Positions 6,935-63,541 of a stretch of 64,000 bases of DNA are shown in pieces. The stretch is taken from assembly GCA_964645705.1 (NCBI GenBank), contig CAZYAB010000001.1, positions 16,749 through 80,748 of the forward strand, in the 5' to 3' direction. Position 1 is the first letter of the stretch. Each line of letters starts with the position of its first letter. This DNA is from an uncultured Methanosarcinales archaeon (GTDB taxonomy: Archaea; Nanobdellota; Nanobdellia; Woesearchaeales; CAXGTL01). The notes beneath the pieces were generated by a model. It was given only the letters and a program-made list of their open reading frames with translations, searched no databases and had not been told where the DNA came from. The translations under genes and the position numbers were made by a program.

Positions 6935-6949
6935 GTGGAGGGGAAATAT

Positions 6950-9103: not shown

Positions 9104-9172
9104 AATATTTTTTATTTTTCACTTTTTTATCTTTTTAATTTAAAAAAATGAGATCACCAAAAAACAAAAAAA

Positions 9173-11529: not shown

Positions 11530-12453
11530 ATGCATAAAACAAAAAACACAGATCAAAACAGCAATCAAAATAATAATCAAAACAGCAATCAAAATAATAA
11601 CCAAAATAATAACCAAAACCCTAATCAAAACAATTATTTTCATAAAATGTTGTTGTTAGCAGCAGGTATTGTTGCCGCAGGTTACATGTTTTTATGTCCT
11701 GTAAAATCATCAGCAGAAACAACTGAATCAAAAAAAACAATTGATGATGTTGTCAGAAGATTCACTGTAAAACAATCCCAAAAACAACAACCAAAAAAAC
11801 CAAATTATATTATTTTACGTGAACAAAGATATATTGAACTTTGCAATCTTATTTACCAAAGTTGGGATAAGATTTCAGAAAGAATAAATAGATTAGATAG
11901 AGAAAATAAAACAGATAAAAGAAATGATTCCGCAGCAGTTGATGAGTTGTCACAAGCAGAAGAGTATATTTCATTTGTTTCTAAAGAATCTGAACCAAAT
12001 TTTGATGATTTTAATCAAAGGGAATTAGTAAGAAGATTATTATTATTAGAAAAGGTTTACAATGCAAGACCCAAGGAAAAGAATTATTTTAGAGACAATT
12101 TTAGATTAGGTTATGGTGTTAAATGGAGAGAGGACCAAAATAGATGCATGATTACTTGGGGAAATGATGAATACAAATTCAAGTGGTCTGACAGAGACGG
12201 CAGTTATTTTATGAAGTGGGACACAGATGGCAACCCTATTTTTAGATTTTATAAAAAACAAAAAATTCATAGAAAACCAAAAACAGGATCATCATCTTCA
12301 TCTCAACAATCACAACAACAAGATCCTCAAAATCAAACACAAACACCTGAACAAGAGCCACAGCCAGAACAAGATCAAGAATTTCCTTCAGAAAATGGAT
12401 CAGGAGAAGGAAGTTCTGATGATTACACTGATTATTCGAATTTTGGTTTTTAA
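11530..12453 (+). CDS. secreted or membrane-anchored hypothetical protein with N/Q-rich N-terminus and acidic C-terminal motif
   Basis: AGGTGA lies 6 nt upstream of ATG. The N-terminus has (NQN) repeats, then a hydrophobic segment MLLLAAGIVAAGYMFLCPV. It ends …DQEFPSENGSGEGSSDDYTDYSNFGF. Confidence 0.5.
   Translation: MHKTKNTDQNSNQNNNQNSNQNNNQNNNQNPNQNNYFHKMLLLAAGIVAAGYMFLCPVKSSAETTESKKTIDDVVRRFTVKQSQKQQPKKPNYIILREQRYIELCNLIYQSWDKISERINRLDRENKTDKRNDSAAVDELSQAEEYISFVSKESEPNFDDFNQRELVRRLLLLEKVYNARPKEKNYFRDNFRLGYGVKWREDQNRCMITWGNDEYKFKWSDRDGSYFMKWDTDGNPIFRFYKKQKIHRKPKTGSSSSSQQSQQQDPQNQTQTPEQEPQPEQDQEFPSENGSGEGSSDDYTDYSNFGF
11563..11640 (+). repeat. short tandem nucleotide repeat (aatcaaaa[ct]a[gat]caat…) encoding NQN low-complexity
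   Basis: Repeats of caaaacagcaatcaaaataataa/ccaaaataataac are directly visible. Confidence 0.6.
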
Positions 12454-16800: not shown

Positions 16801-17727
16801 ACTTCATCAGGAAGTGGATCAGGAGGATCATCTGGTGGAGGCGGATCAGGTGGTTCAACAATTGATAATTTAAAGATTAGCATATTTTATGTTAACATAG
16901 ACAAAGGACAATGGGGAATGCTTGCTACTGAACTTGATAACACAGGATCATATATCTTTGATACAAATGATTTAATAGATGGTCGTTATATTTTTGAGAT
17001 CTATGCAGAAAGCCCAGAAACTCTTGAGTGGGATTATGATTCAGTTGGTTTAATATATATAGATAATTATGAAAATGAACCAATTGCACATGCTGGTTAT
17101 GATACAGCAGCAGTTGTAGGCGAAACAGTTATTTTAGATGGTTCAAGATCATATGATGTTGACCCATATGATGATCTTAATTTTTATTGGCAACAAATAA
17201 CAGGACCAGTTCCATCTGCAATTATGAACCAATATAGTAGGTTTGCATCATTTGTACCAGCAGCACCAGGAACTTATTTGTTTAATTTATGTGTTGATGA
17301 TGGATATTATGGAGATTGTGATGAAGTTATAATAACAGTAACAGGCGAACCAATGCCTCAAGCATTAAAAATAATGAAACCACAAGAAGAAGAAAAAGAA
17401 CCATTAGTAAGAGACATATTTGTTAGCAGTGTAGAAGCAGATGACAACAAGGTTTATTATGAACCTGGTGAAAGAATGCATCTTAGTGTTTCATTTGCAA
17501 ATGAATTAGAAGAAGACATTGAACAAGCAACTGTTCAAATAATTGCACCAAAACTAAGATTATTAAGAGAATTTGGTCCATTTGAACTAGAAGAAGAAGA
17601 GATGGTTACTAAAGAAGTAGTATTCACAATACCCGAAGATGCAAAACCAGGAACTTATGAAGTAAGGGTAATAATCACAACACCAGAAGATCAAAGAGTA
17701 AAAATAAGAAAGATCAAGATATTATAA
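13900..17727 (+). CDS. large secreted cell-surface protein with PKD-like domains, internal ~230-aa duplication, acidic and Gly/Ser linkers
   Basis: Signal peptide MKTKNILFFMFIMIMLALTASGVFA. Two PKD-like signatures (APLEVTF…DDxxI…HTY, WDLGDGT) and a third Ig-like module near the C-terminus. Also a D/E-rich stretch and an SSGSGSGGSSGGGGSGGS linker. Confidence 0.7.
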   Translation: MKTKNILFFMFIMIMLALTASGVFAAESRFTVKTAAVDRDTRDYINPCNINLGGVEKIGTPNANYEINSNTVYAVTHSADGYETDTDYIFLDENLDSCEGENTGDMCYLTSYSSSDSEFNTVCEFSAEYQSWLCDVTNNGRTESYIYAQEQGAVAYVINTLSPVDQENQPPVVDVEATPLEGEAPLEVTFTIDVTDDESISRVMVFFGDDTSTLAQEQSIVIHTYEKPGIYEAQIVAHDNQGLPTEEIVEITVSEQPGADTFLVKTAAVDRETDEYINPCNINLGGVEKIGTPNANYEVNSNTVYTVTHSASGYETDTDSIYLDSHLILCEGENTGDVCELSSYSSSDIKFDTVCEYSAESQGWLCDVTDTSKDKTQSYIYDPFQEGNVVYVINTLAPVDPENQPPVVNAQVLPLEGDAPLNVGFTIDVTDDESINQVIVFFGDGSSQETDPQDFIIHTYTQPGTYTAEIVAHDNQGLPTIVEYEITVNRVQAYPIIVKAEANPAIGTAPLEVTFSNEVTDDGFFKKVEWDLGDGTKVIVDAVAEFTYTYENDGDYVATLTATDNEDLTVQSDGIFIEVLEWNPQANVYPSVTIHSPQQGDVVIGDLDVNVQMLDPDGTIDEYAIELLDENDDFVNLLSHGHPYEQGVIYFNSFDSTIFADGNYKIKVHAWDNEGAHTSVTSGLFEIDNIAPSENTPPVPKIYEPDEGEVFSGDESIVFEVYDEQGGDIEIALVLEYEPSGEKDTLLQTVVELDPYEVFEFDEVFQTEYYPDGMYTLRLFATDEDYEREDHVLFEIDNFEAEVHVEFIQPQDGDVIDGIYEIQWDAYEYEGAEPVDDEPAKEEDEEIDEDEVEEFLEELADELEDELDDEFGLLLTDDFIEEVAEYVVNIMEEVLYDIDDIDDLEEVLEEFAEEFYDDLEDELGDLLPEETIEDMTNLVMDVIIDTLDDYEDMFDYLGTFNSPSTYATSSGSGSGGSSGGGGSGGSTIDNLKISIFYVNIDKGQWGMLATELDNTGSYIFDTNDLIDGRYIFEIYAESPETLEWDYDSVGLIYIDNYENEPIAHAGYDTAAVVGETVILDGSRSYDVDPYDDLNFYWQQITGPVPSAIMNQYSRFASFVPAAPGTYLFNLCVDDGYYGDCDEVIITVTGEPMPQALKIMKPQEEEKEPLVRDIFVSSVEADDNKVYYEPGERMHLSVSFANELEEDIEQATVQIIAPKLRLLREFGPFELEEEEMVTKEVVFTIPEDAKPGTYEVRVIITTPEDQRVKIRKIKIL
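13978..15364 (+). repeat. intragenic tandem duplication (two ~690-nt copies)
   Basis: Protein segments FTVKTAAVDRDTRDYINPCNINLGGVEKIGTPNANYE… and FLVKTAAVDRETDEYINPCNINLGGVEKIGTPNANYE… are ~70% identical over ~230 aa. Confidence 0.7.
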
Positions 17728-19661: not shown

Positions 19662-22613
19662 ATGCATATAAAGGTTGATAGATCTGAAAAAAAATCAATT
19701 TATGTTTCTCATGTTTCTATAATTTTATTTTTTACGTTCCTATTTATTGTTCTATTGTCATCAAATGTTTTATCAGTAGAGGATTTCACAGCTTACACAG
19801 CAAATCCAGATGATATTTCATTTGATCTTTGTCAATGTTCGCCAAGAATATTAGAATTTAAGATAAAAAACATAGGTTATTTAGATCATTCTTATAATAT
19901 TCATTTTGAAAACACAGCAAAGAACTTTGTCCAACCAAGCAAATCTTCAATATCAGTTGGATCTGGACAAGAAAAAGTATTTTATGCTTTAGTAGGTGCT
20001 CCTTGCAATGAAAAAGGAACATATGTCTTAGACACAATGATAATAGATGATCAGGGCCTTGCAAAAAAGATAACTCATACAATGAACATAAAAAGATGCA
20101 TTAATATTGATGTAGTACCTATTAATCAGAACCAAACAACTTCATCATGTAAAGCATTGGTTTATGAATATAAAATAAAAAATACAGGTGATTTTCAAGA
20201 AACATATGATATAAAAATTAAGCCAGAGTCAAGAAAAATCAAGAAATTTATATCAACTAACAAAAAATCTTTTGTATTAAAGCCAAAAACAGAAGAATCT
20301 TTACTTGTTTATTTTACTCCTGATTGTAATTATTTTGGTCATACTATGAATAAATTGATTATTTATACTGATAATACAGATCTAAAAGCTACTACTTATT
20401 TTGAGATCAATGTTTTGCCTAAATTCGACTTCTTAGCAAATATAGACGAAGAATTCAACCTTTGTGAACAAAAAGATTATATTAAAAACATTTACATAAA
20501 AAATCAAGAAGATAAAGCACAAAAATTTTTATTATCAATTCAGGAACCAAGCTTCGCAGATCTTTCAGCTAAATCAATTACATTAGGCCCTGATACAGAA
20601 TACGACTTGAATTTCACTTTATCTCCTGGAAAAGATTCTAAAGGAGACTATCCTTTATTATTAAAAATTAAGCTAGAAGATGGGCCAGCATTAAAAACAC
20701 TTAGTTCAAATATTACTGTAAATGAATGTTATGATTTTGATATAACTTTGCCTGATAGTCCTAAAGCATGCAATAAGGAACAGTCAAAAATACCAATTAC
20801 TATTATTAATAATGCCGAAACAGATGAAGAATTTGAATTAGAATTTGAATCAGATGATGAAAAGTACAATTCAACTAAATTTGAACAAGAAACAATAACA
20901 GTAACAAAAGATTCTGAAAACAACGCATTTTTATTGATAACTCCTGATGATGATATATTTGTAAGGGGAACTATCATTGCAAGACCAAAATCAAATCCTG
21001 ATTTAGAAATAGAAAAAACAATATTAATAAGAACTGTTTCAGAAGACAAATGTTATGAGATTATAACTTTAGAAGATGAGTTTGTTTTGCCAAAGAATGA
21101 TTCCAGGAAATCTATTGAATTAACATTAAAAAACACAGGCGTCTTAAAAACAGATTATGATCTTGCAATAGAGGACACAGAACAATTATTTTCATTAGAT
21201 ATAGATAAATTAACACTAGAACCAGGTGAAGAATCATCAATTAACTTAAATTATGATATTCCTGAAAATATAAGTAAAATTAGATTTGAAGCACTTTTAT
21301 TAGCTAGCGTCAGTACAGAAAATTACACCTATTCTTCAAAACTAATTCTAAGAAAACAAACCACATTCTCAGATTTATTTAAATATAATAACTTACGTAT
21401 TTTAGGTATATTAATAATATTTATACTTTTAGTTATTATTGCATTTATAATTTACATTCAGAAAACAGAAGGCGCATTTAAATCTAAGAAAAAGAAAGAT
21501 AAAAAAACAAAAGAAAAGGTTAAAAAGAAAGGAGTTAAACACAAAGCAGAGAAAAAAGTAAAAAAAAAGAAAAAGAAAAAGAAGAAAAAACCAAAGAAAT
21601 TCTTTGATGTTGATCTTAAGTTTTCAGATAAACATCTTGAAAAAGGCTATGTGTTTGATTTTGATAGAAAACCTAAAAAAACAACTTCGTTTTGGAAATA
21701 TTTCTGGATAATAATTTGCATTTTAGTGATTATTTTGTTAATAATAGGTGCTTATTATTATATGCCGACTATTAAAACAAAAGTCTCTACAAGTTTTAAT
21801 ATTACATTAGGCGATAAATTGAATAATAAGTTACTTAGTGCTTTTAATTTTTCGTCACTTATTCAGCCAATAGATATAATAACTGATCAACAAGAACCAG
21901 ACCAAACAGATACGCAGGATTTTGTAGAGGAAATAGATGAAGAAGAAAAAATAAAGGATGATGAAGTGGAAGAGGATAAAGATGATGAAGAAGAAATGGA
22001 TGAAGACGAAGAAGAGCCAGAAAAAGTAGAAGAAGAACACACAGATATTGGTAAAGAAATAATGCAAGAATTTGAAAGAAAAAGACAAGAATTAGATAAA
22101 CCAAATAAAACAATTGAACCTAAATTTGATCCGTTATTAATAAAGAGCACAATTCTAAGCTATGGTTCATCTTATTTATATTATTTTTACTATCTTATTT
22201 TTGCTATATTAATATTATTCATTTTAATATTAGTGATAAATCGTTTAAAAAAGGGGGGAGAGAACAAAAAGCCAGAAAAAAAAGCAAAAAAACACAAAGT
22301 AAAAGTAAAAACAAAAAAAGTAAAAGCATCCAAAACCATAAGAAAAGCAAAAAGCAAAAAAACAAGACCCAAATCTAAAAAAGATAAGAAAGTCTCACAA
22401 GAGAGCAAAACAAAGTTTTGGAAAATTCTTTTATGGATTTTATTGATTATGGTGATTGCTTTCCTAATAGTTTATTACATAAACATGATAAGAGAATATC
22501 TTTACTATGTTTTAATAGGAGTAATTATTTTGATAATATTGATAATAATTGATAAAAAAAGGCAAAAACAAGATAACAACACCAATAAAAAGAGTACTAA
22601 TAAAAAGAAATGA
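19662..22613 (+). CDS. large multi-pass membrane protein with alternating poly-Lys and poly-Asp/Glu linkers (hypothetical)
   Basis: N-terminal TM, a ~520-aa Cys-containing ectodomain, then 5 further TM helices. These are separated by K-rich (KKKKDKKTKEKVKKKG…) and D/E-rich (EEIDEEEKIKDDEVEEDKDDEEE…) segments. Confidence 0.5.
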   Translation: MHIKVDRSEKKSIYVSHVSIILFFTFLFIVLLSSNVLSVEDFTAYTANPDDISFDLCQCSPRILEFKIKNIGYLDHSYNIHFENTAKNFVQPSKSSISVGSGQEKVFYALVGAPCNEKGTYVLDTMIIDDQGLAKKITHTMNIKRCINIDVVPINQNQTTSSCKALVYEYKIKNTGDFQETYDIKIKPESRKIKKFISTNKKSFVLKPKTEESLLVYFTPDCNYFGHTMNKLIIYTDNTDLKATTYFEINVLPKFDFLANIDEEFNLCEQKDYIKNIYIKNQEDKAQKFLLSIQEPSFADLSAKSITLGPDTEYDLNFTLSPGKDSKGDYPLLLKIKLEDGPALKTLSSNITVNECYDFDITLPDSPKACNKEQSKIPITIINNAETDEEFELEFESDDEKYNSTKFEQETITVTKDSENNAFLLITPDDDIFVRGTIIARPKSNPDLEIEKTILIRTVSEDKCYEIITLEDEFVLPKNDSRKSIELTLKNTGVLKTDYDLAIEDTEQLFSLDIDKLTLEPGEESSINLNYDIPENISKIRFEALLLASVSTENYTYSSKLILRKQTTFSDLFKYNNLRILGILIIFILLVIIAFIIYIQKTEGAFKSKKKKDKKTKEKVKKKGVKHKAEKKVKKKKKKKKKKPKKFFDVDLKFSDKHLEKGYVFDFDRKPKKTTSFWKYFWIIICILVIILLIIGAYYYMPTIKTKVSTSFNITLGDKLNNKLLSAFNFSSLIQPIDIITDQQEPDQTDTQDFVEEIDEEEKIKDDEVEEDKDDEEEMDEDEEEPEKVEEEHTDIGKEIMQEFERKRQELDKPNKTIEPKFDPLLIKSTILSYGSSYLYYFYYLIFAILILFILILVINRLKKGGENKKPEKKAKKHKVKVKTKKVKASKTIRKAKSKKTRPKSKKDKKVSQESKTKFWKILLWILLIMVIAFLIVYYINMIREYLYYVLIGVIILIILIIIDKKRQKQDNNTNKKSTNKKK

Positions 22614-24501: not shown

Positions 24502-27500
24502 ATGCAAGAACAATCAAATTCAAATGAAAAGATTCAAACGAATCAAATTAAAACAGAACAGACAAAACAGACAGAACAGGTAATACAGCAAACTAATAAA
24601 GAGATTAATAAAGAAACTGATGAACAAAAAATAGATAAGAAAAGAAAAAAAATAATTGAAACATTGAAGAACTTCTTTACACAAGAAGTAGAAGAGGAAA
24701 AACAGAAAACAGAAGATAAAACAAAAACAAGTAAGAAAATAGAAGAGAATAAAATAATAGGCGAAAAAAAAGAAGAGCAGAAAGAAAAATCAGAAGAACA
24801 AATCGAAATAGATATGCAAAGAAAAAGACAAGAATTTATTAATTTTATTAAAAAAAAACCAATTAATTTGCTTTACATTTTATTCATCTTATTAATACCT
24901 ATAGGTTATCTTATGTATAAATCAGGAACAAGCAGTTTCTTTCTTTTAGACATTTTTATACCATTCCCAATTAATAAATATGGGTTTGTTTCATTTTTTT
25001 TAATACTGCCCATAGTTTCATGCACATTATTATATTATAAAAAACAAGCATATATTGCTCTATTGTATATTATTAATTCAGGTTTTGCAATTAGACTACA
25101 AAATTTACCATTATTAAAAGATATTACAACTGGAAAATATGTGCCTCTTGCCTTAGACCCGCATGTTTTTTTAAGATATGCGAAGTATCTTTTAGAGCAT
25201 GGAAAATTTTATGCCATAGATTCTTTGAGGTATCAACCATTTGGAGCTAATATGGAGGGTTATAATTCAACAACGTTTTTGTCAAGATTTATTGTTTTCT
25301 TGCACAAAATATTTAGAATTTTCAACTCAAATCAAACTATTGAATTTACAGATGTAATCTATCCTCCTGTTTGTTTTGCTATTAGTCTAATATTTTTCTT
25401 TTTAATTGTTAAAAATTTATTTAATAAAAAAATAGCAATCATTTCAACTTTTATCCTATGTGTTGTTCCTACTTATTTATATAGAACAATGGCTGGTTTT
25501 TCAGATAAAGAATCATTAGGTCTTATGTTCATGTTTATTACTTTTTATTTTTTTATTTTGAGTTGGAAATCAGAAAAGATTAGAGAGGTAATTTTATTTG
25601 GGTTAATCTCAGGAATAGCGACAGGTTTAATGGGTTTAACTTGGGGTGGTGTAACTTTTGTTTTATTAATATTTGGAATTTTTACATTTACTGAAATACT
25701 TTTAAAGAAATTCAGAAAAACAGACTATTTTTTCTACATTTCTTGGATTATGCCAATGACTTATATTATGGCTTTCACTACAAACCAATTTGGCGGAATA
25801 ATTCCTTTATTAAAATCATTTACCTCTGGGATAGCTTATCTTGCTTTTTTAGTTGCTACGTTTGATTTTTTATTTTTTAAATTAAAGATTTTTAAGTTTA
25901 GGGACAATCTTAGTAAAAAATTACCATTAGGAATTACTAGTACTCTTCTCTCATTATTTTTTGCTTTTATTGGTATATCAATATTCTTTGGTCCATCTTT
26001 TATTCTTAAAAAGATCTCTAGTGTTTTTTCAGATATGATAAATCCTTTTGGAAAAACAAGATGGGCATTAACAGTGGCAGAATCTCACCAACCTTATTTT
26101 ACTAATTGGATTAGTGATTTTCAATGGTCATTTATTATTTTCTTTTTTATAGGTTCAATAATTTTATTTTATTATGCATTAAGGCCTTTATCCAAGAAAG
26201 AGTCATTTTCAACTAATTTAGGAATTTATTCTGCAATTTTTGCATTATTTTTAATATTTTTTTCAATGAGTAGATACAGCAGAGGTAATGCTGTTTGGAA
26301 TGGAGAGACAATCTTATCAAAAACAATTTATATTGGATCTTTTATTTTTTTCCTTTTGGTAATGTTTTTATCATACTTATATCTATTTTATTTTGATAAA
26401 AATACTTTTAGAAAAATTGAATCAATAGAAAAAAAATATATTTTTATCTTGATTTGGTTTATTATTATGCTTGTTGCAGCAAGAAGTGCTTTAAGATTGA
26501 TTTTAATGCTTGCACCAATAACAAGTATACTTACAAGTTATTTTATTGTTTTTTCAATCAAAAAGACACAGAAATTTAGTTTAGTAATGAAAGATAAAGT
26601 ATATAAATATTCTTTGATAGTTTTGATGGTTTTTATCTTAATCATCGCATTCTGGCCTTTTGCATCATTAGTTAATGCAACTCCTTTAATAAATAAAGTA
26701 CCTTTTATTAATAGAAATGGTTTTATCATTAACTATGCTGCTTTAAGTATGAGCCAAGCAAAATATACTGGACCTAGTTATGATCAACAATGGCAATTAG
26801 CAGGTAAATGGATTCGTGAAAATACTTCAGAAGATGCTGTATTTGGTCATTGGTGGGATTATGGTTATTGGGTTCAAACAGGTGGTGAAAGAGCAACAGT
26901 TGGTGATGGTGGTAATTGGATAGGTTATTGGAATCATTTAATGGGCAGACATGCTTTGATGGGTGAAAATCAAACAGAAGCTTTAGAATTTTTAAATATG
27001 CATAATGTAACTCATTTTCTAATTATTGCAGATGAGATTGGAAAAATAGGTGCTTATTCTTCTATTGGTTCTGATGAGAATTATGATAGATATACTTTTA
27101 TTCCAACATTTTCATTAAACAATCAATTAACAAAAGAAACAAGAGAAGGCATGATCCTTATTTATGAAGGCGTAACCCCTGTTGATGAGGATTTTGAATT
27201 TAATGGTGTTAAATATTATGCAAGACAAGCAGCTGTTAAAGATGTTTATATTCCAATTAAGAAAATAACAATAAATATAGGAGAAAATAAAACAAGACAA
27301 GACATGCAAATCATGCAACCATATACTTTGCTTTTCCAACAAAATCAACAACCACTTGAAGTTCCTCTTAAATGTTTATATTACCAAGATCAATTCATTG
27401 AATTTGATAAACCGGGGTTAAACAATTGTTTTATGGTTATTCCAACCATAAATAATCAAGGCTTTGATCCTAACGGAGCAGGTTTATATCTTGGTAATGA

Positions 27501-27783
27501 TGCTATAAATTCTGTGTGGGTTAATTTATTCTTATTTGAACAAAAAAATACAAATTATAAAACAAACAATTTTAAATTGGCCTTAAGTCAACAACATCCT
27601 ATTTTAGATGATGTAGGTAAACAAATAGGTTTTAACATAAACAACGTTGCTTTATACAATGGAAGATTATTTGGTCCTTTGAAAGTATGGGAAGTTAATT
27701 ATCCTGAGAATTTAACATTGTATCCAGAATATCTTCATAAGAGTTATCAAGAGGCAAATATGAGCCATGTTACTGTGATTTGA
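24502..27783 (+). CDS. aglB: archaeal oligosaccharyltransferase AglB (STT3 family) with ~130-aa K/E/Q-rich N-terminal extension
   Basis: WWDYGYW catalytic-site motif (GHWWDYGYWVQTGGERATVGDGGNW). About 13 TM helices precede a large C-terminal soluble domain. Total length 1093 aa. Confidence 0.85.
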   Translation: MQEQSNSNEKIQTNQIKTEQTKQTEQVIQQTNKEINKETDEQKIDKKRKKIIETLKNFFTQEVEEEKQKTEDKTKTSKKIEENKIIGEKKEEQKEKSEEQIEIDMQRKRQEFINFIKKKPINLLYILFILLIPIGYLMYKSGTSSFFLLDIFIPFPINKYGFVSFFLILPIVSCTLLYYKKQAYIALLYIINSGFAIRLQNLPLLKDITTGKYVPLALDPHVFLRYAKYLLEHGKFYAIDSLRYQPFGANMEGYNSTTFLSRFIVFLHKIFRIFNSNQTIEFTDVIYPPVCFAISLIFFFLIVKNLFNKKIAIISTFILCVVPTYLYRTMAGFSDKESLGLMFMFITFYFFILSWKSEKIREVILFGLISGIATGLMGLTWGGVTFVLLIFGIFTFTEILLKKFRKTDYFFYISWIMPMTYIMAFTTNQFGGIIPLLKSFTSGIAYLAFLVATFDFLFFKLKIFKFRDNLSKKLPLGITSTLLSLFFAFIGISIFFGPSFILKKISSVFSDMINPFGKTRWALTVAESHQPYFTNWISDFQWSFIIFFFIGSIILFYYALRPLSKKESFSTNLGIYSAIFALFLIFFSMSRYSRGNAVWNGETILSKTIYIGSFIFFLLVMFLSYLYLFYFDKNTFRKIESIEKKYIFILIWFIIMLVAARSALRLILMLAPITSILTSYFIVFSIKKTQKFSLVMKDKVYKYSLIVLMVFILIIAFWPFASLVNATPLINKVPFINRNGFIINYAALSMSQAKYTGPSYDQQWQLAGKWIRENTSEDAVFGHWWDYGYWVQTGGERATVGDGGNWIGYWNHLMGRHALMGENQTEALEFLNMHNVTHFLIIADEIGKIGAYSSIGSDENYDRYTFIPTFSLNNQLTKETREGMILIYEGVTPVDEDFEFNGVKYYARQAAVKDVYIPIKKITINIGENKTRQDMQIMQPYTLLFQQNQQPLEVPLKCLYYQDQFIEFDKPGLNNCFMVIPTINNQGFDPNGAGLYLGNDAINSVWVNLFLFEQKNTNYKTNNFKLALSQQHPILDDVGKQIGFNINNVALYNGRLFGPLKVWEVNYPENLTLYPEYLHKSYQEANMSHVTVI

Positions 27784-46251: not shown

Positions 46252-47388
46252 ATGAACAATAATAAAGAAATGAAAAGAAATATACAAAATACAAAAAAAC
46301 CAAGAATCTTGATTATCACACGTTTTTTTCCACAAGATTATAAAGGTGGGGGGGAATATGTTATTTACAATATTTGGAAAAATGCTAGCTTATATTACGA
46401 TGTAAAGCTTGTTTCTGGTTGGGTCAATGATCTTAAATTACTTCCACCAGGAACTCATGCTGTTGACCTAAGATCAAAAAATAGGTTTATTAGGTACTTA
46501 AAACTATATTTTGCAGTAAAGAGATATGCAAATAAGATTAAACCAGACCTAATACACAGCAATGCAATAGAAGTTCCTAAATTAAGATATCCTATGATTG
46601 TTACATCACATCATCTAGGTCATTTGCTAGGTAGATTAAAAGAAAATCCACTCAATCGAATTAGAGCAAAAATACAAAAGATTTTATTAAAAAGAAGATA
46701 TAAACAATTTAAAAAAATACTTGCAGTTAGTAATTCAACAAAAAATGATCTTATAGAGCTTGGTATTAATCCAAAGAAGATAAAAGTAATATACAATGGA
46801 ATTGAAACAAACAAATTCACAACAAAATCAAAAAAAACAAAACAAGAAAAAAACAAGTTTATAATTCTTTATCAATCAAGAATAAGCAAAGAAAAAGGTC
46901 AACATATTGCAATAAAAGCTTTGGCCCACTTACCTAAAGAAATGCTAGATAAAATAAAATTATACTTAGTTGGGTTTATGTCTGATAAAAAATATTTTAA
47001 TTATTTAAAGAATATATCAAAAGGTCTTCCTGTCGAATTTCATATTAATGTTCCAAATAAAGAAGAATATTTTCATAGATGTGATTTATTTGTATTCCCA
47101 ACACTTATGACAGAAGGTTTTGGTTTAGTATCAGCAGAAGCTTTTTGTTGTAATGTACCAGTTATTGCATCAGATTTTCCAGCAATAAGAGAAGTTGTAA
47201 GAGATAATGGAATACTTATTCCGTCGAATAATGCAAAATTATTAGCAGATGCAATAATAAAGCTTTACAAAAATCCAAAATTAAGAAAAAAAATGGGAAT
47301 AAATGGTAGAAAGTTTGTTCTAAATAATTTTACATGGGAAATTGCTTTTAAGAAGTATAAAGAAGTTTATGATTGCATTCTTAAATAA
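46252..47388 (+). CDS. glycosyltransferase family 4
   Basis: EGFGLVSAEAFCCNVPVIASD (E-x7-E GT4 motif). Confidence 0.8.
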   Translation: MNNNKEMKRNIQNTKKPRILIITRFFPQDYKGGGEYVIYNIWKNASLYYDVKLVSGWVNDLKLLPPGTHAVDLRSKNRFIRYLKLYFAVKRYANKIKPDLIHSNAIEVPKLRYPMIVTSHHLGHLLGRLKENPLNRIRAKIQKILLKRRYKQFKKILAVSNSTKNDLIELGINPKKIKVIYNGIETNKFTTKSKKTKQEKNKFIILYQSRISKEKGQHIAIKALAHLPKEMLDKIKLYLVGFMSDKKYFNYLKNISKGLPVEFHINVPNKEEYFHRCDLFVFPTLMTEGFGLVSAEAFCCNVPVIASDFPAIREVVRDNGILIPSNNAKLLADAIIKLYKNPKLRKKMGINGRKFVLNNFTWEIAFKKYKEVYDCILK

Positions 47389-50447: not shown

Positions 50448-51857
50448 ATGACAAAGATACTTTTAATCTATCCAAACATTGTAGAATCCCCTAAAGATAT
50501 ATCATTAGGTTTAGCCACAATATCAGCACTGCTTAAAAAACATAAACATGATGTGCAGCTTCTTGACTCAACGTTCTCGCCAATAACAAAAAATCAAATA
50601 AAACAAAAACTATATTCATTCAGACCAGATTTAGTAGGAATAACAGCTGCAACTAATGATTTTCATTATGCAATACACATTTGTAAACAAATAAAGCACA
50701 TAAATCCTAAAATATCAATCATATGCGGCGGATATCATGCAACTATTGCGCCTGATGATATTATTAAACAGGACTGTTTTGACATGTGTTGTATTGGTGA
50801 AGGTGAATATCCTTTTCTTGAATTAGCTAATAGTATTAGTAGGGGAAAAGTGAATAAAAATATTAAGAATATTTGGTTTAAAGTTGGTAATAGAATAAAA
50901 AAAAATAAACTACGTCCACTAGTAAAAGATCTAGACAAATTACCTTTTCCAGATAGAGTATTATTTGATTTCAGCACATATCTTGATTATAATAAAGGAA
51001 TTGCAACATTTATGGCTTCAAAAGGATGTCCTTTTGCATGTGCACATTGTATTAATAATTTTTTGATTAAAAAGTATAAAGGTTTAGGAAAATATTTAAG
51101 GTTTAGAACAGCTGATTCAATAATTAAAGAGATCAAACAAGTGCTTCAAAAATTTGGTGGAATTATAAAAGAAATAGAATTTTATGATGATACTTTTACT
51201 CTGAATAAACGACTTGTAAAAGAATTTAGTAAAAAATATAAAAATGAAATTGGAATTCCATTTAATATTAATATTAGGGCAGGAAGTGTTACAAAAAAAG
51301 ACCTTATCCATCTAAAGCAAGCTGGTTGTGTTCGCGTTTCTATTGGTTTGGAATCCGGTGACGGATTCATAAGAAATAAAATATTAAAAAGATACCAAAC
51401 AGAAAATCAAATAATAGATACATTTAAATGGGCACGTGAATCCGGATTACAAACATATTCTTTTAATATGGTTGGTATTCCTTATGAAACAAAAGAAACA
51501 ATAAAAAGAACAATAGAGTTGAATAAAAAATGCAAACCCGATTTTGTTGGTGTTTCAATATTCAATGCATATAAAGGAACAGAACTTTATGATTTGTGTG
51601 AAAAGAATGGTTGGTTAATAAAAGACATTGCTGCAAAGTCTTATTTCCAATCAACAAATGTAAAACTGCCAACAGTTTCTATAAAGCAATTAAAAAAAAT
51701 AAGAGATAAATTTGGATTTTTAGTATACAAAGATTCAAGACCACTCAGAGCATATTTAGATTTATTTGACAAAACCTTTATAAAAATACCAGGATATCTG
51801 AAATCAAGATCCTTCATAACAAAATTAGGCATGAAAAAATTATTAAAAAAATTATAA
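50448..51857 (+). CDS. B12-binding domain radical SAM protein (class B radical SAM)
   Basis: N-terminal B12-binding domain (ILLIYPN…VGITAATND…CGGYHAT) and CPFACAHC (CxxxCxxC). Confidence 0.8.
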   Translation: MTKILLIYPNIVESPKDISLGLATISALLKKHKHDVQLLDSTFSPITKNQIKQKLYSFRPDLVGITAATNDFHYAIHICKQIKHINPKISIICGGYHATIAPDDIIKQDCFDMCCIGEGEYPFLELANSISRGKVNKNIKNIWFKVGNRIKKNKLRPLVKDLDKLPFPDRVLFDFSTYLDYNKGIATFMASKGCPFACAHCINNFLIKKYKGLGKYLRFRTADSIIKEIKQVLQKFGGIIKEIEFYDDTFTLNKRLVKEFSKKYKNEIGIPFNINIRAGSVTKKDLIHLKQAGCVRVSIGLESGDGFIRNKILKRYQTENQIIDTFKWARESGLQTYSFNMVGIPYETKETIKRTIELNKKCKPDFVGVSIFNAYKGTELYDLCEKNGWLIKDIAAKSYFQSTNVKLPTVSIKQLKKIRDKFGFLVYKDSRPLRAYLDLFDKTFIKIPGYLKSRSFITKLGMKKLLKKL

Positions 51858-51858
51858 G

Positions 51859-54252
51859 GTGGTAAAAATTCAAGAAAATAATGGAAATATCCAAGAAGAT
51901 AAAAATATAGATACTCAAAAGGAACCAGGTGAGTCTATTGATAAATCTAAAGAATTTGAAAATAAAGTAAAAAAAGAAGAAATAGAACAAAAAATTGAAA
52001 CAACAGACTCAAAACAAAAAAAACTAAAATTTAATTTAAATTCATTTAAAAGAGTAACTATAGCTTGGTTTAAAAATCCTTGGAATTTAGCTTTTTTATT
52101 TTTGCTTATTGTTGTGTTTTTTATTTATTGGAATAATTTATTTGTTGATAGTATTTGGTTAGATGAAACTGCTTATGATTGGGATGCTCAGTTGCTTAAA
52201 CATGATTTATCACATTTTTCAAATATAAAAAATTGGGGCTCTATATTCCCAGTTACTGTTATTTCATTCTTTAATATTTTTACAACAAGCTTTAATGCAG
52301 GAAGGTTAATGGCTTTATTTTTTGGTCTTTTAGGCATAGTATTTACATATTTTGTTGGAAAAGAGATAAAAAATGAATTTGTTGGTTTATCTGCAGCATT
52401 TTTATTAGGGATACATCATTGGTATCGGTTTTTATCAATGAAAGCTTTATTAGATGTCCCATTAGCAACCATGACTATTATTTCTGCCTTTTTTTTAATT
52501 AAATGTTTTAATGATTTTAATTTTAAATGGTTAATCTTATTATTAATTTCAGCAACATTAGCAACTCTTACAAAGTTATCAGGATTTATTATTTGGTTAA
52601 TGATTTTTATTTGTTTAGTGGTATTTTTAATAGTACATAAACTCTCATTAATAAAAAAATATTCAAAAACTAAATATTTGGTTCCTGGTTTAATATTATT
52701 AATCATTTTGACATTTTTAATAATAAAAAGCCCTATAGGGGAATTTGTAATCTTTTCATTTTTAACAAGAGTAACTTTTCAATATGTTATTGCGACATAT
52801 AAAACAATGGGCGGTTTTTTAAGTGGGATTATTGTTTTATTAATGATTATTGGTTCTTTACTAACTTTTTTTTATAATAAGATAGAATATTATGTTTTAT
52901 TTATTATGAGTCATTTATATTTATTTTTATCAGCAATTTCAGGACAAAGTTTGGGTGTTCCTGAATTGAGATATTTGCTCCCTGTTTTGCCTTTCTTTTA
53001 TATTCTTTCAGTTGTATCTCTGGAAGAAATAAAACATTTTATTTTAATTTTTTTTAAAGATAGAAAAATGATAAAAATTTCATTAGTTGTGTTACAAATA
53101 ATAATTTTACTTTTTGTTGCAAACACATATTACAAGACTGGTAGTATGATTCTAGACCAAAAGAATGTTGCATATTCTGGTTATGTTGAAGCTATGGATT
53201 GGGTCAATGAAAATATACCTCCCGGTAATAATAATATCACTGGTTATCATGCTAAGGATTATTCATATGATCCAGATAATTATGTGGATGATCTTTATAT
53301 TAAGAATTATTTTTCATGCTGTAGTTATAATGTTGGTTTAAATAATGATGATATAAGAAGAGTAACAAGTTTTAATAAATTTAAAACAATAGACAATTTT
53401 ACAGACCATATATCTTCTAATAATTTTTCTGTAGTATTTCTTAATCCAGATATGTGGGAACCTGGTCAACCAAAATGGGTTAATATGGGTACATGGCCTT
53501 TTTTGATATTGTTTGACCCAAACACACAGCAAGCAATACAACAAATAGATTATAAACAATTTCCTCAATATAAAGCAATCATTGATTTAGGATTTGAAGA
53601 AGTAAGAGTAATAAAGAGAAAAGCACTTCTTCCTGTTATAGACATAACAAATAATAATTTCCTTGGTCAACAATATATGGATGATGTTCCTGTTAATATC
53701 CTTTTTAAGATGGAAATAGAAAAACAAGAACAAGGTAAAAACATGAAAGAAGAATTAAAAGATGAAATAAAAGAAGAAAATAAAGTAACCAATAAATTAT
53801 CTATAATTGAAACGAACTTAGGAAATATAACAATTGAACTAGCACAAGATAAAGCACCAATAACAACAAAGAATTTTATAAATTTAATAGAAAAAGATTT
53901 TTACAATAATTTAACATTTCATAGAGTTATCAAAGATTTTATGATACAAGGTGGCGATCCTAATGGCGACGGAACTGGTGGTCCTGGTTATACAATAGAA
54001 GATGAATTTCATCCAGATCTTAAGCATGATAAAGGCGTTATATCAATGGCAAATTCAGGGCCAAATACTGGTGGAAGTCAATTTTTTATCACTGTTGTTG
54101 AAACACCTTGGTTAGATAATAAGCACAGTGTATTTGGGAAAGTTGTTGAAGGAATTGGTGTTGTAGAGAATATATCAAAAATTGAAACTGGTGCAAATGA
54201 TAAACCTATTGAAGATGTTGTAATTAAATCAATAAAAATATTAGATAAGTAA
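51859..54252 (+). CDS. fusion protein: GT-C (PMT/ArnT-like) polytopic membrane glycosyltransferase + C-terminal cyclophilin-type peptidyl-prolyl isomerase
   Basis: N-terminal ~550 aa with more than 10 TM helices and SIWLDETAYDWD (first-loop DE motif). C-terminal ~165 aa: FHRVIKDFMIQGGDP…GGPGYTIEDEF…ISMANSGPNTGGSQFFIT…HSVFGKV is a cyclophilin signature. Confidence 0.75.
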   Translation: MVKIQENNGNIQEDKNIDTQKEPGESIDKSKEFENKVKKEEIEQKIETTDSKQKKLKFNLNSFKRVTIAWFKNPWNLAFLFLLIVVFFIYWNNLFVDSIWLDETAYDWDAQLLKHDLSHFSNIKNWGSIFPVTVISFFNIFTTSFNAGRLMALFFGLLGIVFTYFVGKEIKNEFVGLSAAFLLGIHHWYRFLSMKALLDVPLATMTIISAFFLIKCFNDFNFKWLILLLISATLATLTKLSGFIIWLMIFICLVVFLIVHKLSLIKKYSKTKYLVPGLILLIILTFLIIKSPIGEFVIFSFLTRVTFQYVIATYKTMGGFLSGIIVLLMIIGSLLTFFYNKIEYYVLFIMSHLYLFLSAISGQSLGVPELRYLLPVLPFFYILSVVSLEEIKHFILIFFKDRKMIKISLVVLQIIILLFVANTYYKTGSMILDQKNVAYSGYVEAMDWVNENIPPGNNNITGYHAKDYSYDPDNYVDDLYIKNYFSCCSYNVGLNNDDIRRVTSFNKFKTIDNFTDHISSNNFSVVFLNPDMWEPGQPKWVNMGTWPFLILFDPNTQQAIQQIDYKQFPQYKAIIDLGFEEVRVIKRKALLPVIDITNNNFLGQQYMDDVPVNILFKMEIEKQEQGKNMKEELKDEIKEENKVTNKLSIIETNLGNITIELAQDKAPITTKNFINLIEKDFYNNLTFHRVIKDFMIQGGDPNGDGTGGPGYTIEDEFHPDLKHDKGVISMANSGPNTGGSQFFITVVETPWLDNKHSVFGKVVEGIGVVENISKIETGANDKPIEDVVIKSIKILDK

Positions 54253-54264
54253 TTATTAGGTAGA

Positions 54265-55170
54265 ATGGATATGAAAAATAAAATATCAATTTTAATAGCA
54301 GCATACAGAGAACCTAAAACAATTGGAAAAGCTATAGAATCATTTCTTTCTCAGTTAACTAATTTAAAATGGGAAATGTTATTGATTGCGCCTGATAAAG
54401 AAACATTGGAAGTGATGAAATCGTATTCGAAAAAAGACAGGAACATAAAAGTATTCAAAGACCCAAGAAAAGGAAAACCTGTTGCTCTTAATATTCTTTT
54501 TAAAAAAGCAAAAGGGGATATTTTTATTTTAAGTGATGGTGACGTTTATGTTAGTAAAAATGCCATATTTGAATTATTAAAAAAATTAGAAAATCCTAAA
54601 ATAGGGGCAGTCACAGGAAGACCTGTTTCTATTTCACAAAAAAACAAGATGCTTGGTTATTGGTCACATCTTTTGACAGATGTTGGCGCACATAAAACTA
54701 GATTAATAAGAACAAAGCAAGGCAAGTTCATACTTGTATCTGGTTATTTATTTGCAATGCGAAAACTATTCACAAAAATCCCCGAAGATGCACTTAGTGA
54801 TGATGCTGTTATGGCTCATATGGTGTGGCAGAGAGGATACAAAATCGACTATGCACCAAAAGCAAAGGTTTTTGTCAAATATCCAACAACATTTGATGAT
54901 TGGATATTACAAAAAAGGAGATCAACTGGTGGTTACGTACAAATAGAACACTATTTTAAGGATCCTCCAAGAATGAGAACATTTTTCAGGGAATTATTAT
55001 ATGGTAGCATGTGGGTTTGGTTTTATCCAAATAGTATAAGAGAAATATGGTATACATTGATGTTGTTTCCTGCAAAACTTTATCTCTGGTATAAGATCAA
55101 AAAAGAGGTAAAAAAAGATCAAACAAAGACATTGTTAGAAATCTGGAAACCTATTGAGAGCACTAAGTAA
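54265..55170 (+). CDS. glycosyltransferase family 2
   Basis: ISILIAAYREPKTI…LIAPDKE…LSDGDVYV. A QKRRSTGG region sits where QxxRW is expected. Confidence 0.7.
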   Translation: MDMKNKISILIAAYREPKTIGKAIESFLSQLTNLKWEMLLIAPDKETLEVMKSYSKKDRNIKVFKDPRKGKPVALNILFKKAKGDIFILSDGDVYVSKNAIFELLKKLENPKIGAVTGRPVSISQKNKMLGYWSHLLTDVGAHKTRLIRTKQGKFILVSGYLFAMRKLFTKIPEDALSDDAVMAHMVWQRGYKIDYAPKAKVFVKYPTTFDDWILQKRRSTGGYVQIEHYFKDPPRMRTFFRELLYGSMWVWFYPNSIREIWYTLMLFPAKLYLWYKIKKEVKKDQTKTLLEIWKPIESTK

Positions 55171-56673
55171 ATTTTTTGATCCTTTTTAAAGATTGTGAAG
55201 TTAATAATAATAATCTAGTTGTTAGTTTGTTATCAAAGGTTGTTAGAAACAAATCACAACTTAAAATTTTAAATATAATTAAAACAATTTGTTTTGGTAA
55301 TTTTTTATTTAAATTATAAATAAAATATAAAAGGAATGTTGCATAATTATTTTCAACCCATCTATTACTTGACCAGGTTTTCAAATAAACATCTTTGATA
55401 TCATTTCTTATTAAACCATTGTTTTTTCCACGTTCATATAATTTTGTTCCTGGATATAATACTAGAGGGAAATAAATTATTTGAAAAGGTTTTGGCAATT
55501 TAAGTATGAGGTCTATTGTTTCAATAATATTTTTATTTTTTTCAAAGGGATTATTAACAATAATATGATATATTGGAGGTATTTGAAGATATTTTGTGAA
55601 TGAATTAATAATCTCGGCTGCTTCTAATATTTTTTTATTACTTGTGTATCTTTCATAAATTTTAAAATTAGTAGATTCACTTCCACTTTGAATTCCCATA
55701 CTTACTTCAATAAGACCCGTTTCTATTAATATTTTGAGCTTTTCTTTGTTTATAATTAGAGGACTTATAGATGCTTTGAATGGCAATCCTATTTTCTTTT
55801 TATATTCACTGCTAAATTTCTTAAGATCGTCTATACTACGTATTAAGAATTCCTCATCAGTAAAACGTATTAATCTTATAAAATCATATTGTTTAGTAAT
55901 GTTAACTAATTCATCAATAATGTGCTTTATACTTCTTTTTCTTATATATGTCCCCTTGTTTTTGTATAATTGTCTTAGTTTAAAATTACAACAAAAAGTG
56001 CATTTATAAGGACAACCTCTTGTTGTATGGATGTAATATTCGTATATTCTTTTTCCATTAGAATCAACTCTATAGGGCATTATCTTTTTTAATATTTTGG
56101 GAGTTACTTTTACTATTCTTCCTTCATCAATAACATAATGTGTTTTTATATCATAATCTTGCGTCGGATACTTATCAAGATTACTTGTTAAGTTTTTTAT
56201 AGGGTTTATGATAATTTTGTTATTTTTCTTAAAACCTAAATTATTAATTTTATGTAACCTTTCCTTTTTTTCTAATTTATTTATAAAATCAAGAAGAGAC
56301 TCCTCACATTCACCGATCATAATATAATCAGCATATTTTAAACACTCTTCTGGCCTCATTGTCGGATGACTCCCCCCCACATGATTGGGATCTTTAAATG
56401 ATGTTTTAAATACTGGGTGATCTGTACACTCTTCATGAAATAGTTAGTCATAAGAGAAATACCAATTAATTTTGAATCTTTACATATTTGCATTAGATCT
56501 TTAAGAATATTTTTATTATATTTTTCATCATAGTTTTGTTTATATGTACCAGGAGACAAAAATACTAAGTTAACTTTGTGCCCTTTTGATTTTAAATAAG
56601 AAGATAATTTTCTTAATCCATATGCTACGTTTAAATCATATGGAGATATTAGAGTTATTTTTATTTTAAACAC
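55163..56673 (-). pseudogene. B12-binding radical SAM gene split by a frameshift in a C7/G7 homopolymer (56372-56378)
   Basis: Upstream ORF (56356..56673) encodes the B12-binding N-domain ending …IPIMWGGVIRQ*. Downstream ORF (55163..56380) starts (GTG)GGSHPTM… and contains CPYKCTFC (CxxxCxxC). One extra G would give a continuous …IMWGGGSHPTMRPEE with the GGxHxT box. Confidence 0.65.
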
Positions 56674-56814
56674 CTTTTTTATTTATTATCTTTTTAAATA
56701 GGAAATTCACATTTTATAAGCTTTTGTATACTTAAAGATAATAGTTTTATTAATAGGTAATAATTAACTATAATATAATAATATTTATATAATGATGTTT
56801 ATTCCCAGATACTC

Positions 56815-61822: not shown

Positions 61823-63541
61823 ATGAAATTTATTAATAAGAAAAAAGATTTAATAGTATTGTTTTTATTCTTATTTGTAATTGTAACTAGATTTATTCCA
61901 ATAAATAATCTATATAGTGAGGATGAAATGAACATACCATTGATTCTTGAAAGTAATCCTGATTATTTTGTAAATACTAAGTTACACGCACATCCACCGT
62001 TAGGAGAAATAATCTTTTATTTTCATTCATACATCTTTGGTACATCTTTGGTGTTTATAAGACTTTTACCAATTTTATTTTCTATTTTTAATATATTTTT
62101 TCTATATTACATAACGAAGAAGTTTTATGGTGAAAAAGTTGCATTCTTTTCATTATTATTGTCCTCAATTTCATTTCATTGGTTAGTTACATCTGCCATA
62201 GTTTCTATAGATCAATTCGCAGTAACAATTTTCTTACTTTTTTTATATCTAATATTAAATAAAGAAAACATAAAAGAGAGATTTTCTATTTATATGGGAA
62301 TATTGTTGGGTATATCTATTTTATTAAAATACCAGTTTATTATTTTATACTTGATCTTATTCATATATTTGTTAATAACTTCATATAGATTAAAATATAC
62401 ACTTATTTCCTTTTTTAAATCTTGTATTGTTTCTTTAATACTTTTTTCTTTTTATCCTGTTTTTTCATATTTCACTGATTTTAATTTATTTTTAGATACA
62501 TTAAGATTCATAATGGATTATGCAAGCACTGTTAATGGTGTTAATTTGCCATTCGGGACAATATTTACCATCTTAGCATTGTATAGTACACCATTACTGA
62601 TAGGATTAGCTTTTTTAAGATTAATAAGTTTTATGAAACTAAAAAAACAAAAACAGAATTTTAGACAAAAAGAGGTTGTAGGACAAGATATTATTCACAT
62701 TATAATTATAATAATAAATCTCTTATTTTTCTTATTTGTAGTAAAACGTGGGGACTATAGCAGGTATTTAATGATAATATTGCCTTCTTTAACTATTCTT
62801 TCATCTCAATATCTTTCTAAAATAAAATTTAATAAAGCTTTATTATTTTTAACTTCTTTCTTTGCTCTCATTGTCTTTTCATTTAGTCATGTTTTTTCTT
62901 ATATTAAACTCTCCGAGGATATTTTTGTTTTACAAAATGTTAATTTTTATATGCAATCTATAAAAAATCTAAATTTCAATTTCTTTTTTCCATTTCATAT
63001 AGATCATGGCCACTGGGTTGGAGCTAATTTTCTATTAATCTTTTTAATTTATTTGTTTTCTTTGGTAATCTTCATTTCTTTATTTTTAATTAAAAATAAA
63101 AAATTACAATTGTTAGTTATTGTTTTATTTATTGGTTTTGGTTTTGGTTATAATTCTTATCTTAGTTCAGAGCATTTGTTTCATCTATCTCAACCTGACC
63201 CAAACCCTGTTATAAATGAAATGATTGATTTTTTTAATGATAATAATTTGGATAGGCCTATTTATGTAACAGACAAGGCTTTCTTATATAAACTGAATAC
63301 TTTTGATATTCCTCATGGGAAAAATGAGAAATTAATTATAAGGGATGAGTCATTTAGAATAGATGATATTGATTTTCTTAAAAAAAAGATTTCTCAAAAT
63401 GGTGGCACAATAATTTTCTTAAACTTTGGACCACACGTTGAAAAGGATAAAATAATTAGCCTGGAAAATTGTAATTTGATCAAACGTTTCAGTTCAAAAG
63501 AGATAGAAATGGGCTATATTTTAACTTGTGAATCAGATTAA
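61823..63541 (+). CDS. GT-C glycosyltransferase (PMT/ArnT-like, GT39/GT83-type)
   Basis: First loop has YSEDEMN and HAHPPLGE (DE and HPPL boxes). About 12 TM helices, then a ~150-aa C-terminal soluble domain. Confidence 0.55.
   Translation: MKFINKKKDLIVLFLFLFVIVTRFIPINNLYSEDEMNIPLILESNPDYFVNTKLHAHPPLGEIIFYFHSYIFGTSLVFIRLLPILFSIFNIFFLYYITKKFYGEKVAFFSLLLSSISFHWLVTSAIVSIDQFAVTIFLLFLYLILNKENIKERFSIYMGILLGISILLKYQFIILYLILFIYLLITSYRLKYTLISFFKSCIVSLILFSFYPVFSYFTDFNLFLDTLRFIMDYASTVNGVNLPFGTIFTILALYSTPLLIGLAFLRLISFMKLKKQKQNFRQKEVVGQDIIHIIIIIINLLFFLFVVKRGDYSRYLMIILPSLTILSSQYLSKIKFNKALLFLTSFFALIVFSFSHVFSYIKLSEDIFVLQNVNFYMQSIKNLNFNFFFPFHIDHGHWVGANFLLIFLIYLFSLVIFISLFLIKNKKLQLLVIVLFIGFGFGYNSYLSSEHLFHLSQPDPNPVINEMIDFFNDNNLDRPIYVTDKAFLYKLNTFDIPHGKNEKLIIRDESFRIDDIDFLKKKISQNGGTIIFLNFGPHVEKDKIISLENCNLIKRFSSKEIEMGYILTCESD

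Follow-up and report, generated by a model that had tools for sequence, protein, structure and literature searches.

A one-base frameshift in a run of seven G interrupts a B12-binding radical-SAM gene in the glycosylation island of a probable DPANN archaeon: a likely young pseudogene or OFF allele

Introduction

Homopolymeric tracts inside coding regions are a hallmark of the poly-G/C contingency loci of bacteria, such as the capsule, lipooligosaccharide (LOS) and flagellar-glycan genes of Campylobacter jejuni, pgtA and lgt of Neisseria, the fucosyltransferase genes of Helicobacter pylori and glpK of Mycobacterium tuberculosis. The usual length criterion for a phase-variable tract in bacteria is at least seven G/C, and tracts of just 7 nucleotides (nt) reportedly phase-vary, the 7C tract of glpK being an example. 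Homopolymers are also the sites of frameshift pseudogenes in the reduced or host-dependent genomes of Buchnera and Blochmannia, where some of the poly-A frameshifts are partly rescued by transcriptional slippage. In archaea, fucA1 of Sulfolobus solfataricus, which encodes an alpha-L-fucosidase, has reportedly been shown experimentally to be expressed from two open reading frames (ORFs) by a -1 frameshift on the heptamer A_AAA_AAT. We know of no archaeon in which homopolymer phase variation has been demonstrated, nor of any demonstrated switching of the poly-G/C contingency kind in DPANN archaea. Here, we analysed a gene for a B12-binding radical S-adenosylmethionine (radical-SAM) protein that is broken within a run of seven G, in a stretch of 64,000 nt of contig CAZYAB010000001.1 from assembly GCA_964645705.1; this whole stretch is called the window below.

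The closest described enzymes are the cobalamin-dependent (class B-like) radical-SAM enzymes TokK, CysS, TsrM, OxsB, HpnJ/HpnR and BchE. These have in common an N-terminal B12-binding Rossmann domain with a GG motif, followed by a core with the motif CxxxCxxC. The break described here falls at the GG motif, and we argue below that it is real and probably recent.

Results

The run of seven C at 56372-56378 on the plus strand is G7 on the coding minus strand (56378-56372), where positions 56380-56371 read GTGGGGGGGA and the codons around the run are ...ATC ATG TGG GGG GGA GTC ATC CGA CAA TGA. The first of the two ORFs (56356..56673, minus strand) has a GTG start and encodes 105 amino acids (aa), comprising about three-quarters of a B12-binding Rossmann domain and ending in IPIMWGGVIRQ. 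The second ORF (55163..56380, minus strand) encodes the remainder of the B12 domain, followed by the radical-SAM core and a hydrophobic tail at the C-terminus. It is 405 aa long from the GTG at 56380, where its product starts with (M)GGSHPTMRPEE, and 398 aa long from the ATG at 56359, which is the start chosen by the gene callers. The 105-aa and 405-aa ORFs overlap at the G7 run, and the addition of one G (G8) gave a continuous frame of 503 aa, just as the original prediction had claimed from the overlap at this tract. The restored text given in that prediction, IMWGGGSHPT, was wrong by one glycine too many; the actual text is IMWGGSHPTMRPEE, with two glycines. In the restored numbering, the run covers the end of Trp99 together with Gly100 and Gly101. 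A run of five G also restores the frame, with the loss of one invariant glycine, and runs of G6 and G9 fail to restore it.

With the restored 503-aa protein, Pfam matches were obtained for B12-binding (PF02310) at residues 16-127, with 42.1 bits against a cut-off of 32.1, and for Radical_SAM (PF04055) at residues 216-390, with 60.4 bits against a cut-off of 29.5. Since the B12-binding match spans residues 16-127, the break sits inside the B12 domain and not between the two domains. The 105-aa piece alone, in which the domain is cut at residue 101/127, scored 20.9 bits for B12-binding, which is under the 32.1 cut-off, and the 398/405-aa fragment alone scored 58.5 bits for Radical_SAM. As encoded, no single polypeptide has both a full B12-binding domain and a radical-SAM core, and such a polypeptide is obtained only after a G has been added.

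The restored protein was aligned with 35 homologues, giving an alignment of 36 family members in which it aligned across the junction without any insertion or deletion (indel). W99, G100 and G101 were invariant in all 36. The same was true of the columns C221, C225 and C228, which belong to the intact CxxxCxxC [4Fe-4S]/SAM cluster motif at 55991..56014 on the minus strand (C221-P-Y-K-C225-T-F-C228), and H103 and T105 were at least 90% conserved. The frame is lost right after the invariant W99-G100-G101, within the B12 domain, so that a conserved and essential part of the protein is disrupted.

Regarding the identity of the enzyme, NCBIfam returned 21 matches, all of them far under the equivalog cut-offs (the best was TIGR04072, with 106 bits against 360). 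Among solved structures only remote relatives were matched, the nearest being AprD4 (6fd2, E=1.6e-17), CysS (9n1b), TokK (7kdx), OxsB (5ul2) and TsrM (6wte). Judged on these matches, the gene product is a generic B12-binding radical-SAM enzyme of an un-named subfamily; from its family and genomic context it is presumably a C-methylase or a similar modifier of a glycan or lipid. The same island carries an intact B12-binding radical-SAM gene at 50448..51857 on the plus strand, which encodes 469 aa and which the original prediction had proposed for comparison. This protein is indeed an intact family member that aligns straight through the junction, with IPIMWGGSHPTMRPEE in the restored protein and ISIICGGYHATIAPDD in the paralogue. 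It is only 29% identical to the restored protein, and it is a distant paralogue rather than a recent duplicate, possibly with the role of a functional back-up.

To place the break in other assemblies, loci were retrieved by exact-protein look-up of the two fragments and of neighbouring proteins; the comparison was made at the level of assemblies, all of them metagenomic. Nine contigs span the site, and all nine have exactly G7 and are 100% identical to the window there, so that the run is the same in every other assembly that covers it. The contigs are from JGI (3300009405, 3300009374 and 3300009375), ENA (SAMN10231901, SAMN10231903, SAMN10231904 and SAMN11854489) and Logan (SRR8062333 and SRR9166048), representing at least seven read sets and three pipelines (JGI, SPIRE/ENA and Logan). 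The exact 105-aa protein was found in contigs of all three sources. No paper citing these run or sample accessions was found; the study label SUTE22-1 might stand for the Cariaco Basin BioProject PRJNA326482, a guess that none of our conclusions depends on. When 5.8 billion proteins were searched with the restored 503-aa query, no fused near-identical protein was found. The 398-aa fragment was the only match at 100% identity (P0001), and the next matches were at most 45% identical, the closest being 44-45%; among the 120 listed, nearly all were fused proteins of about 500 aa.

A second G7 run, GGT GGG GGG GAA, is present at 46348-46354 on the plus strand, in codons 32-35 of an intact GT4 glycosyltransferase gene (46252..47388). 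It served as a control: it was assembled in frame in nine contigs, so G7 runs are not systematically miscalled. This run also offers another place within a glycan gene at which slippage could occur.

Uniform support for exactly seven C, which in the original prediction would have spoken against a sequencing error, was essentially what we found, in assemblies rather than in read pile-ups. With nine contigs of exactly seven G and no fused protein, sequencing error is effectively ruled out at the assembly level. We conclude, with little residual doubt, that the frameshift is carried by a natural, clonal population and is probably fixed in it.

Two other searches had little bearing on the junction. 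The variable-gap pattern CCCAATCATGT N{3,14} AGTCATCCGACAATG, which finds the window, had no match in metagenome_contigs or genome_contigs; these collections evidently lack the organism, so length variants could not have shown up in them. When the query was limited to the first 202 aa, the protein search gave a single distant match and failed to recover the exact fragments, so it is uninformative on the junction. Elsewhere in the island, ENA scaffold_286 differed from the window over 13 kb only by one N-gap and one single-nucleotide polymorphism, at 63254. The PMT_2 gene at 61823..63541, which is split in this scaffold into pieces of 431 and 143 aa, was considered as a second ON/OFF difference and rejected, as the split is an artefact of the N-gap (positions ~12230-12320 of the scaffold, equivalent to 63048-63066 of the window).

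We also asked how unusual the tract is in a window with a G+C content of 27%. The 64 kb contain two G7/C7 runs where dinucleotide shuffling predicts 0.53. As 15 of 100 shuffles gave at least two, the excess is non-significant and the tract itself is within chance. What is non-random is that the frame breaks exactly in the run. GGG makes up 10% of the glycine codons, and GGG-GGG accounts for 3 of the 65 Gly-Gly pairs against 0.66 expected, a weak excess. The Trp-Gly-Gly motif by itself forces at least TGGGGNGG. Of 20 WGG sites from 80 related loci in GTDB genomes, 18 had a G-run of 4 nt and the other two a run of 7 nt, and none had a run of 8 nt.

Apart from the break, the gene is well preserved, with no second stop codon or frameshift in the 503 codons. 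As 6.3% of the possible single substitutions would create a stop, the absence of a further one indicates that the lesion is young, with less than about 0.03 substitutions per site since inactivation (at the 95% level). The restored protein departs from the family at 6 of the 59 columns that are at least 90% conserved (the mean for other members is 2.0 and the maximum 7). This is high but within range, and is compatible with slight relaxation or simply with a divergent member. A scan of GTDB genomes with the family alignment found only relatives of at most 39% identity, spread over many phyla, and no orthologue close enough for dating.

Upstream of the GTG start by about 20-25 nt, an archaeal TATA-box-like element, TTTAAAAA, was recognised by eye at 56691..56698 on the minus strand, and it suggests that the promoter of the disrupted gene may still be present. 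A sigma-70 promoter scan is uninformative in such AT-rich DNA. At the other end of the 105-aa ORF, its TGA overlaps the ATG of the 398-aa ORF in an ATGA at 56356..56359 (minus strand), and a GGAG lies at 56373-56370 on the minus strand, 10 nt upstream of this ATG. This geometry could permit termination-reinitiation and is probably fortuitous; the ATGA overlap is likely a coincidence because Met106 falls in a variable column of the family alignment.

Some contigs break near the run. A Logan contig from SRR8062331 (L004) begins at the first C of the run, and two others, L017 (SRR8062331) and L018 (SRR9166041), stop at 56329, leaving 43 nt before the run; the adjacent position 56330 is the third codon position of Ala115. 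Shared break coordinates were also found elsewhere in the island, twice at 55501, twice at 57586, at the ends of L107 and L108 and at the common end of L111 and L112. Across samples and assemblers, the breaks at 56329/56330, 56372, 55501, 57586 and ~48807 (contigs L004, L006-L009, L017, L018, L107, L108, L111 and L112) lie in unremarkable sequence. Such shared break points suggest that the assembly graph branches because a variant haplotype co-occurs, so that the island would be mosaic at the level of strains, and this accounts for the breaks of L004, L017 and L018 as well as heterogeneity of the tract does. No Logan contig reaching the GT4 G7 tract was retrieved, so that run gave no control for the Logan breaks.

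One further contig, L014 (ENA ERZ23499040, SAMN10231904), has 122 nt at its start that are unlike the window and are joined to it at 56411, inside the B12-domain ORF. These 122 nt encode an unrelated peptide on the opposite strand (ETVGLSKQSSEFEEYPTLGGK...). The junction is either that of a chimeric contig or a structural variant in which the 5' end of the gene is deleted.

The gene lies in a glycosylation island of about 60 kb. The island contains AglB/STT3, several PMT_2 glycosyltransferases, GT1, GT2 and GT4 glycosyltransferases and a Wzx-like flippase, together with sugar epimerases, dehydratases, nucleotidyltransferases, SAM methyltransferases and asparagine synthase. The AglB/STT3 oligosaccharyltransferase (24502..27783, plus strand) is 1093 aa long, and its closest relatives are 63-65% identical (P0125-P0127). 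Further down the list, every AglB homologue that carries a name belongs to Woesearchaeota or Nanoarchaeota; the search did not recover the query itself. These homologues, together with the 27% G+C, point to a DPANN (Woesearchaeota-like) archaeon as the probable host.

Between the two B12-binding radical-SAM genes, 51859..54252 on the plus strand encodes a 797-aa protein with an N-terminal PMT_2-type membrane glycosyltransferase region and a C-terminal cyclophilin-type peptidyl-prolyl isomerase (PF00160, E=3e-54), a fusion that looks uncommon. Upstream of the glycosylation genes, the plus-strand genes at 6935..11515, 13900..17727 and 19662..22613 encode very large predicted surface or membrane proteins with PKD or Ig-like repeats or no Pfam match, and their products are likely S-layer or adhesin-type glycoproteins that would serve as substrates.

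Discussion

The explanation we favour, with a probability of roughly 0.6, is that a recent frameshift generated by slippage inactivated an accessory B12 radical-SAM gene, leaving a young pseudogene or, equivalently, an OFF allele. Among the options in the original prediction, it is the pseudogene that gains support, in the form of a pseudogene or OFF allele that arose at a slippage-prone tract. In the ancestral gene, the Trp-Gly-Gly that is invariant at the cobalamin-binding GG motif would most probably have been spelled TGG GGG GGG, with a run of G8. This is the likeliest ancestor because the base that disappeared was the third of the Gly101 codon, where nothing but a G would make a homopolymer hotspot. 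Replication slippage would then have taken out one G, converting G8 to G7.

Translation from the GTG would now leave the correct frame after Gly101, add VIRQ and stop, giving a truncated Rossmann fragment of 105 aa, and the radical-SAM core would be deprived of its own start and of roughly 100 residues on the N-terminal side of the B12 domain. Most likely, this leaves the enzyme inactive. Its loss may be tolerated given an accessory function and the presence of another B12 radical-SAM gene at a distance of 3.3 kb. A +1 slip in the G7 run could restore the gene; we saw no sign here of such a reversion or of selection for one.

Several observations weigh against inactivation as the explanation. 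An OFF phase variant or a recoded gene would look the same, with one clean lesion in an ORF that is perfect elsewhere, and the promoter-like element and the start codon have been retained. The Logan contig whose first base is the first C of the run, together with the two that end 43 nt short of it, could reflect a co-existing allele. In addition, with the next homologue at 44-45% identity, there is no relative close enough to date the split with respect to the clone.

The alternative that survives best is a phase-variable contingency locus, in which slipped-strand mispairing between G7 and G8 would toggle a glycan-modifying enzyme ON and OFF, with every sampled consensus in the OFF state. We consider this possible but unlikely. 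It would fit a G/C tract of 7 nt or more within coding sequence in a genome of 27% GC, an ORF that is otherwise pristine, and the position of the gene in a large surface-glycosylation island. It would also fit the need for two consecutive GGG codons, which are rare in this window singly although their pairs number 3 against 0.66 expected, and the fact that L004 opens with exactly seven C, as a de Bruijn branch between C7 and C8 or longer would give. However, no variant of the tract length was seen in the nine assemblies, which represent at least seven read sets and were compared at consensus level, and the search of 5.8 billion proteins gave no ON allele. G7 runs are not enriched, as counted in the window only, and the W-G-G motif is inevitably G-rich, with two of the 20 homologous WGG sites also being G7. 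The contig breaks recur at other coordinates of the island, and the break of L004 may therefore be due to strain mosaicism. A more specific form of this explanation is that the DPANN archaeon varies a B12/radical-SAM modification of its surface glycan or lipid, and that the ON allele persists in the water-column samples studied here, either as a minority or as a sister haplotype, which would explain the Logan breaks at the run and 43 nt away from it. In this form we find the idea doubtful.

Another possibility, which we consider improbable, is recoding of the G7 template: ribosomes shifting by -1 on G_GGG_GGA, or an RNA polymerase that slips and adds a G, would produce a functional full-length enzyme at a lower level. 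G_GGG_GGA at 56377-56371 is formally a slippery X_XXY_YYZ heptamer in the zero frame (codons TGG GGG GGA), a -1 slip on it gives exactly ...IMWGGSHPT... with no residue gained or lost, and the zero-frame stop follows four codons on. There is also an archaeal precedent in fucA1. However, the heptamer and the exact -1 product add no independent evidence, because a one-base deletion in a homopolymer brings both with it automatically. Downstream of the site there is no significant structure (fold z-scores of +1.14 for 42 nt, then -0.19, -1.16 and -1.47); the nearest stable helix starts some 20 nt beyond the site and not at 5-9 nt. The split is shared by none of the ~200 homologues found, nearly all of the 120 listed being fused and about 500 aa long, although this is weak evidence as none of them is more than 45% identical. 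Heptamers made of G only shift poorly in the systems tested, and transcriptional slippage normally requires A/T runs of 9 or more.

That the true genome has G8 and an intact gene, with G7 being a sequencing or assembly error, is very improbable. Homopolymers are the classic sites of indel errors, the data are all metagenomic assemblies and one contig breaks at the run; against this stand the same G7 in all nine contigs from independent pipelines, the GT4 run that stayed in frame and the absence of a G8 version from the protein database. Least probable of all is a functional split gene, whose 105-aa and 398-aa products would both be made and assemble non-covalently into an active enzyme: both ORFs are intact, are called as genes in all assemblies and could both be translated given the ATGA overlap at 56356-56359 and the GGAG 10 nt upstream of the ATG, but two functional halves are unlikely because the cut goes through the Rossmann-type B12 domain where the WGG of the cobalamin-binding motif is invariant, and not through a domain boundary, residues S102-T105, including the conserved H103 and T105, are absent from both products, and no homologue found with the restored protein is split here.

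For annotation, our results mean that the two ORFs should be treated as one frameshifted B12-binding radical-SAM pseudogene and not as two genes, and that the site should not be 'corrected'. The glycosylation island of a DPANN archaeon would then be evolving by gene inactivation in an otherwise clonal population. Gene inactivation by a one-base slip in a homopolymer is an ordinary and well-known kind of event. If G7/G8 heterogeneity were true, this locus would be, to our knowledge, an early archaeal example of homopolymer phase variation, and it would affect a surface structure possibly relevant to host attachment or virus evasion in an episymbiont.

Compared with the known systems, the locus differs from the described cobalamin-dependent radical-SAM enzymes in that no NCBIfam equivalog cut-off is reached, the solved structures are remote and the gene is interrupted, while the domain order and both motifs of those enzymes are present in the restored protein. 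It resembles fucA1 in being a carbohydrate-related enzyme gene of an archaeon with two overlapping ORFs in a -1 relation and a homopolymeric slippery heptamer. Unlike fucA1, whose heptamer is A_AAA_AAT, it has a heptamer built on G, no stimulatory structure and no conservation of the arrangement. With the poly-G/C contingency loci it shares a tract of 7 nt or more within the coding sequence of a glycan gene in an AT-rich genome, a frame that is switched by a one-base change in length and an OFF allele that is otherwise intact. It differs from them in that no length polymorphism was seen, the tract is at the short end (7), G-tracts are not enriched in the window and the host is a DPANN archaeon. 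In the homopolymer-frameshift pseudogenes of Buchnera and Blochmannia the tract is a long poly-A, whereas here it is G7; common to those pseudogenes and to the present gene are a single homopolymer indel, an accessory gene that is otherwise intact and a small, AT-rich genome.

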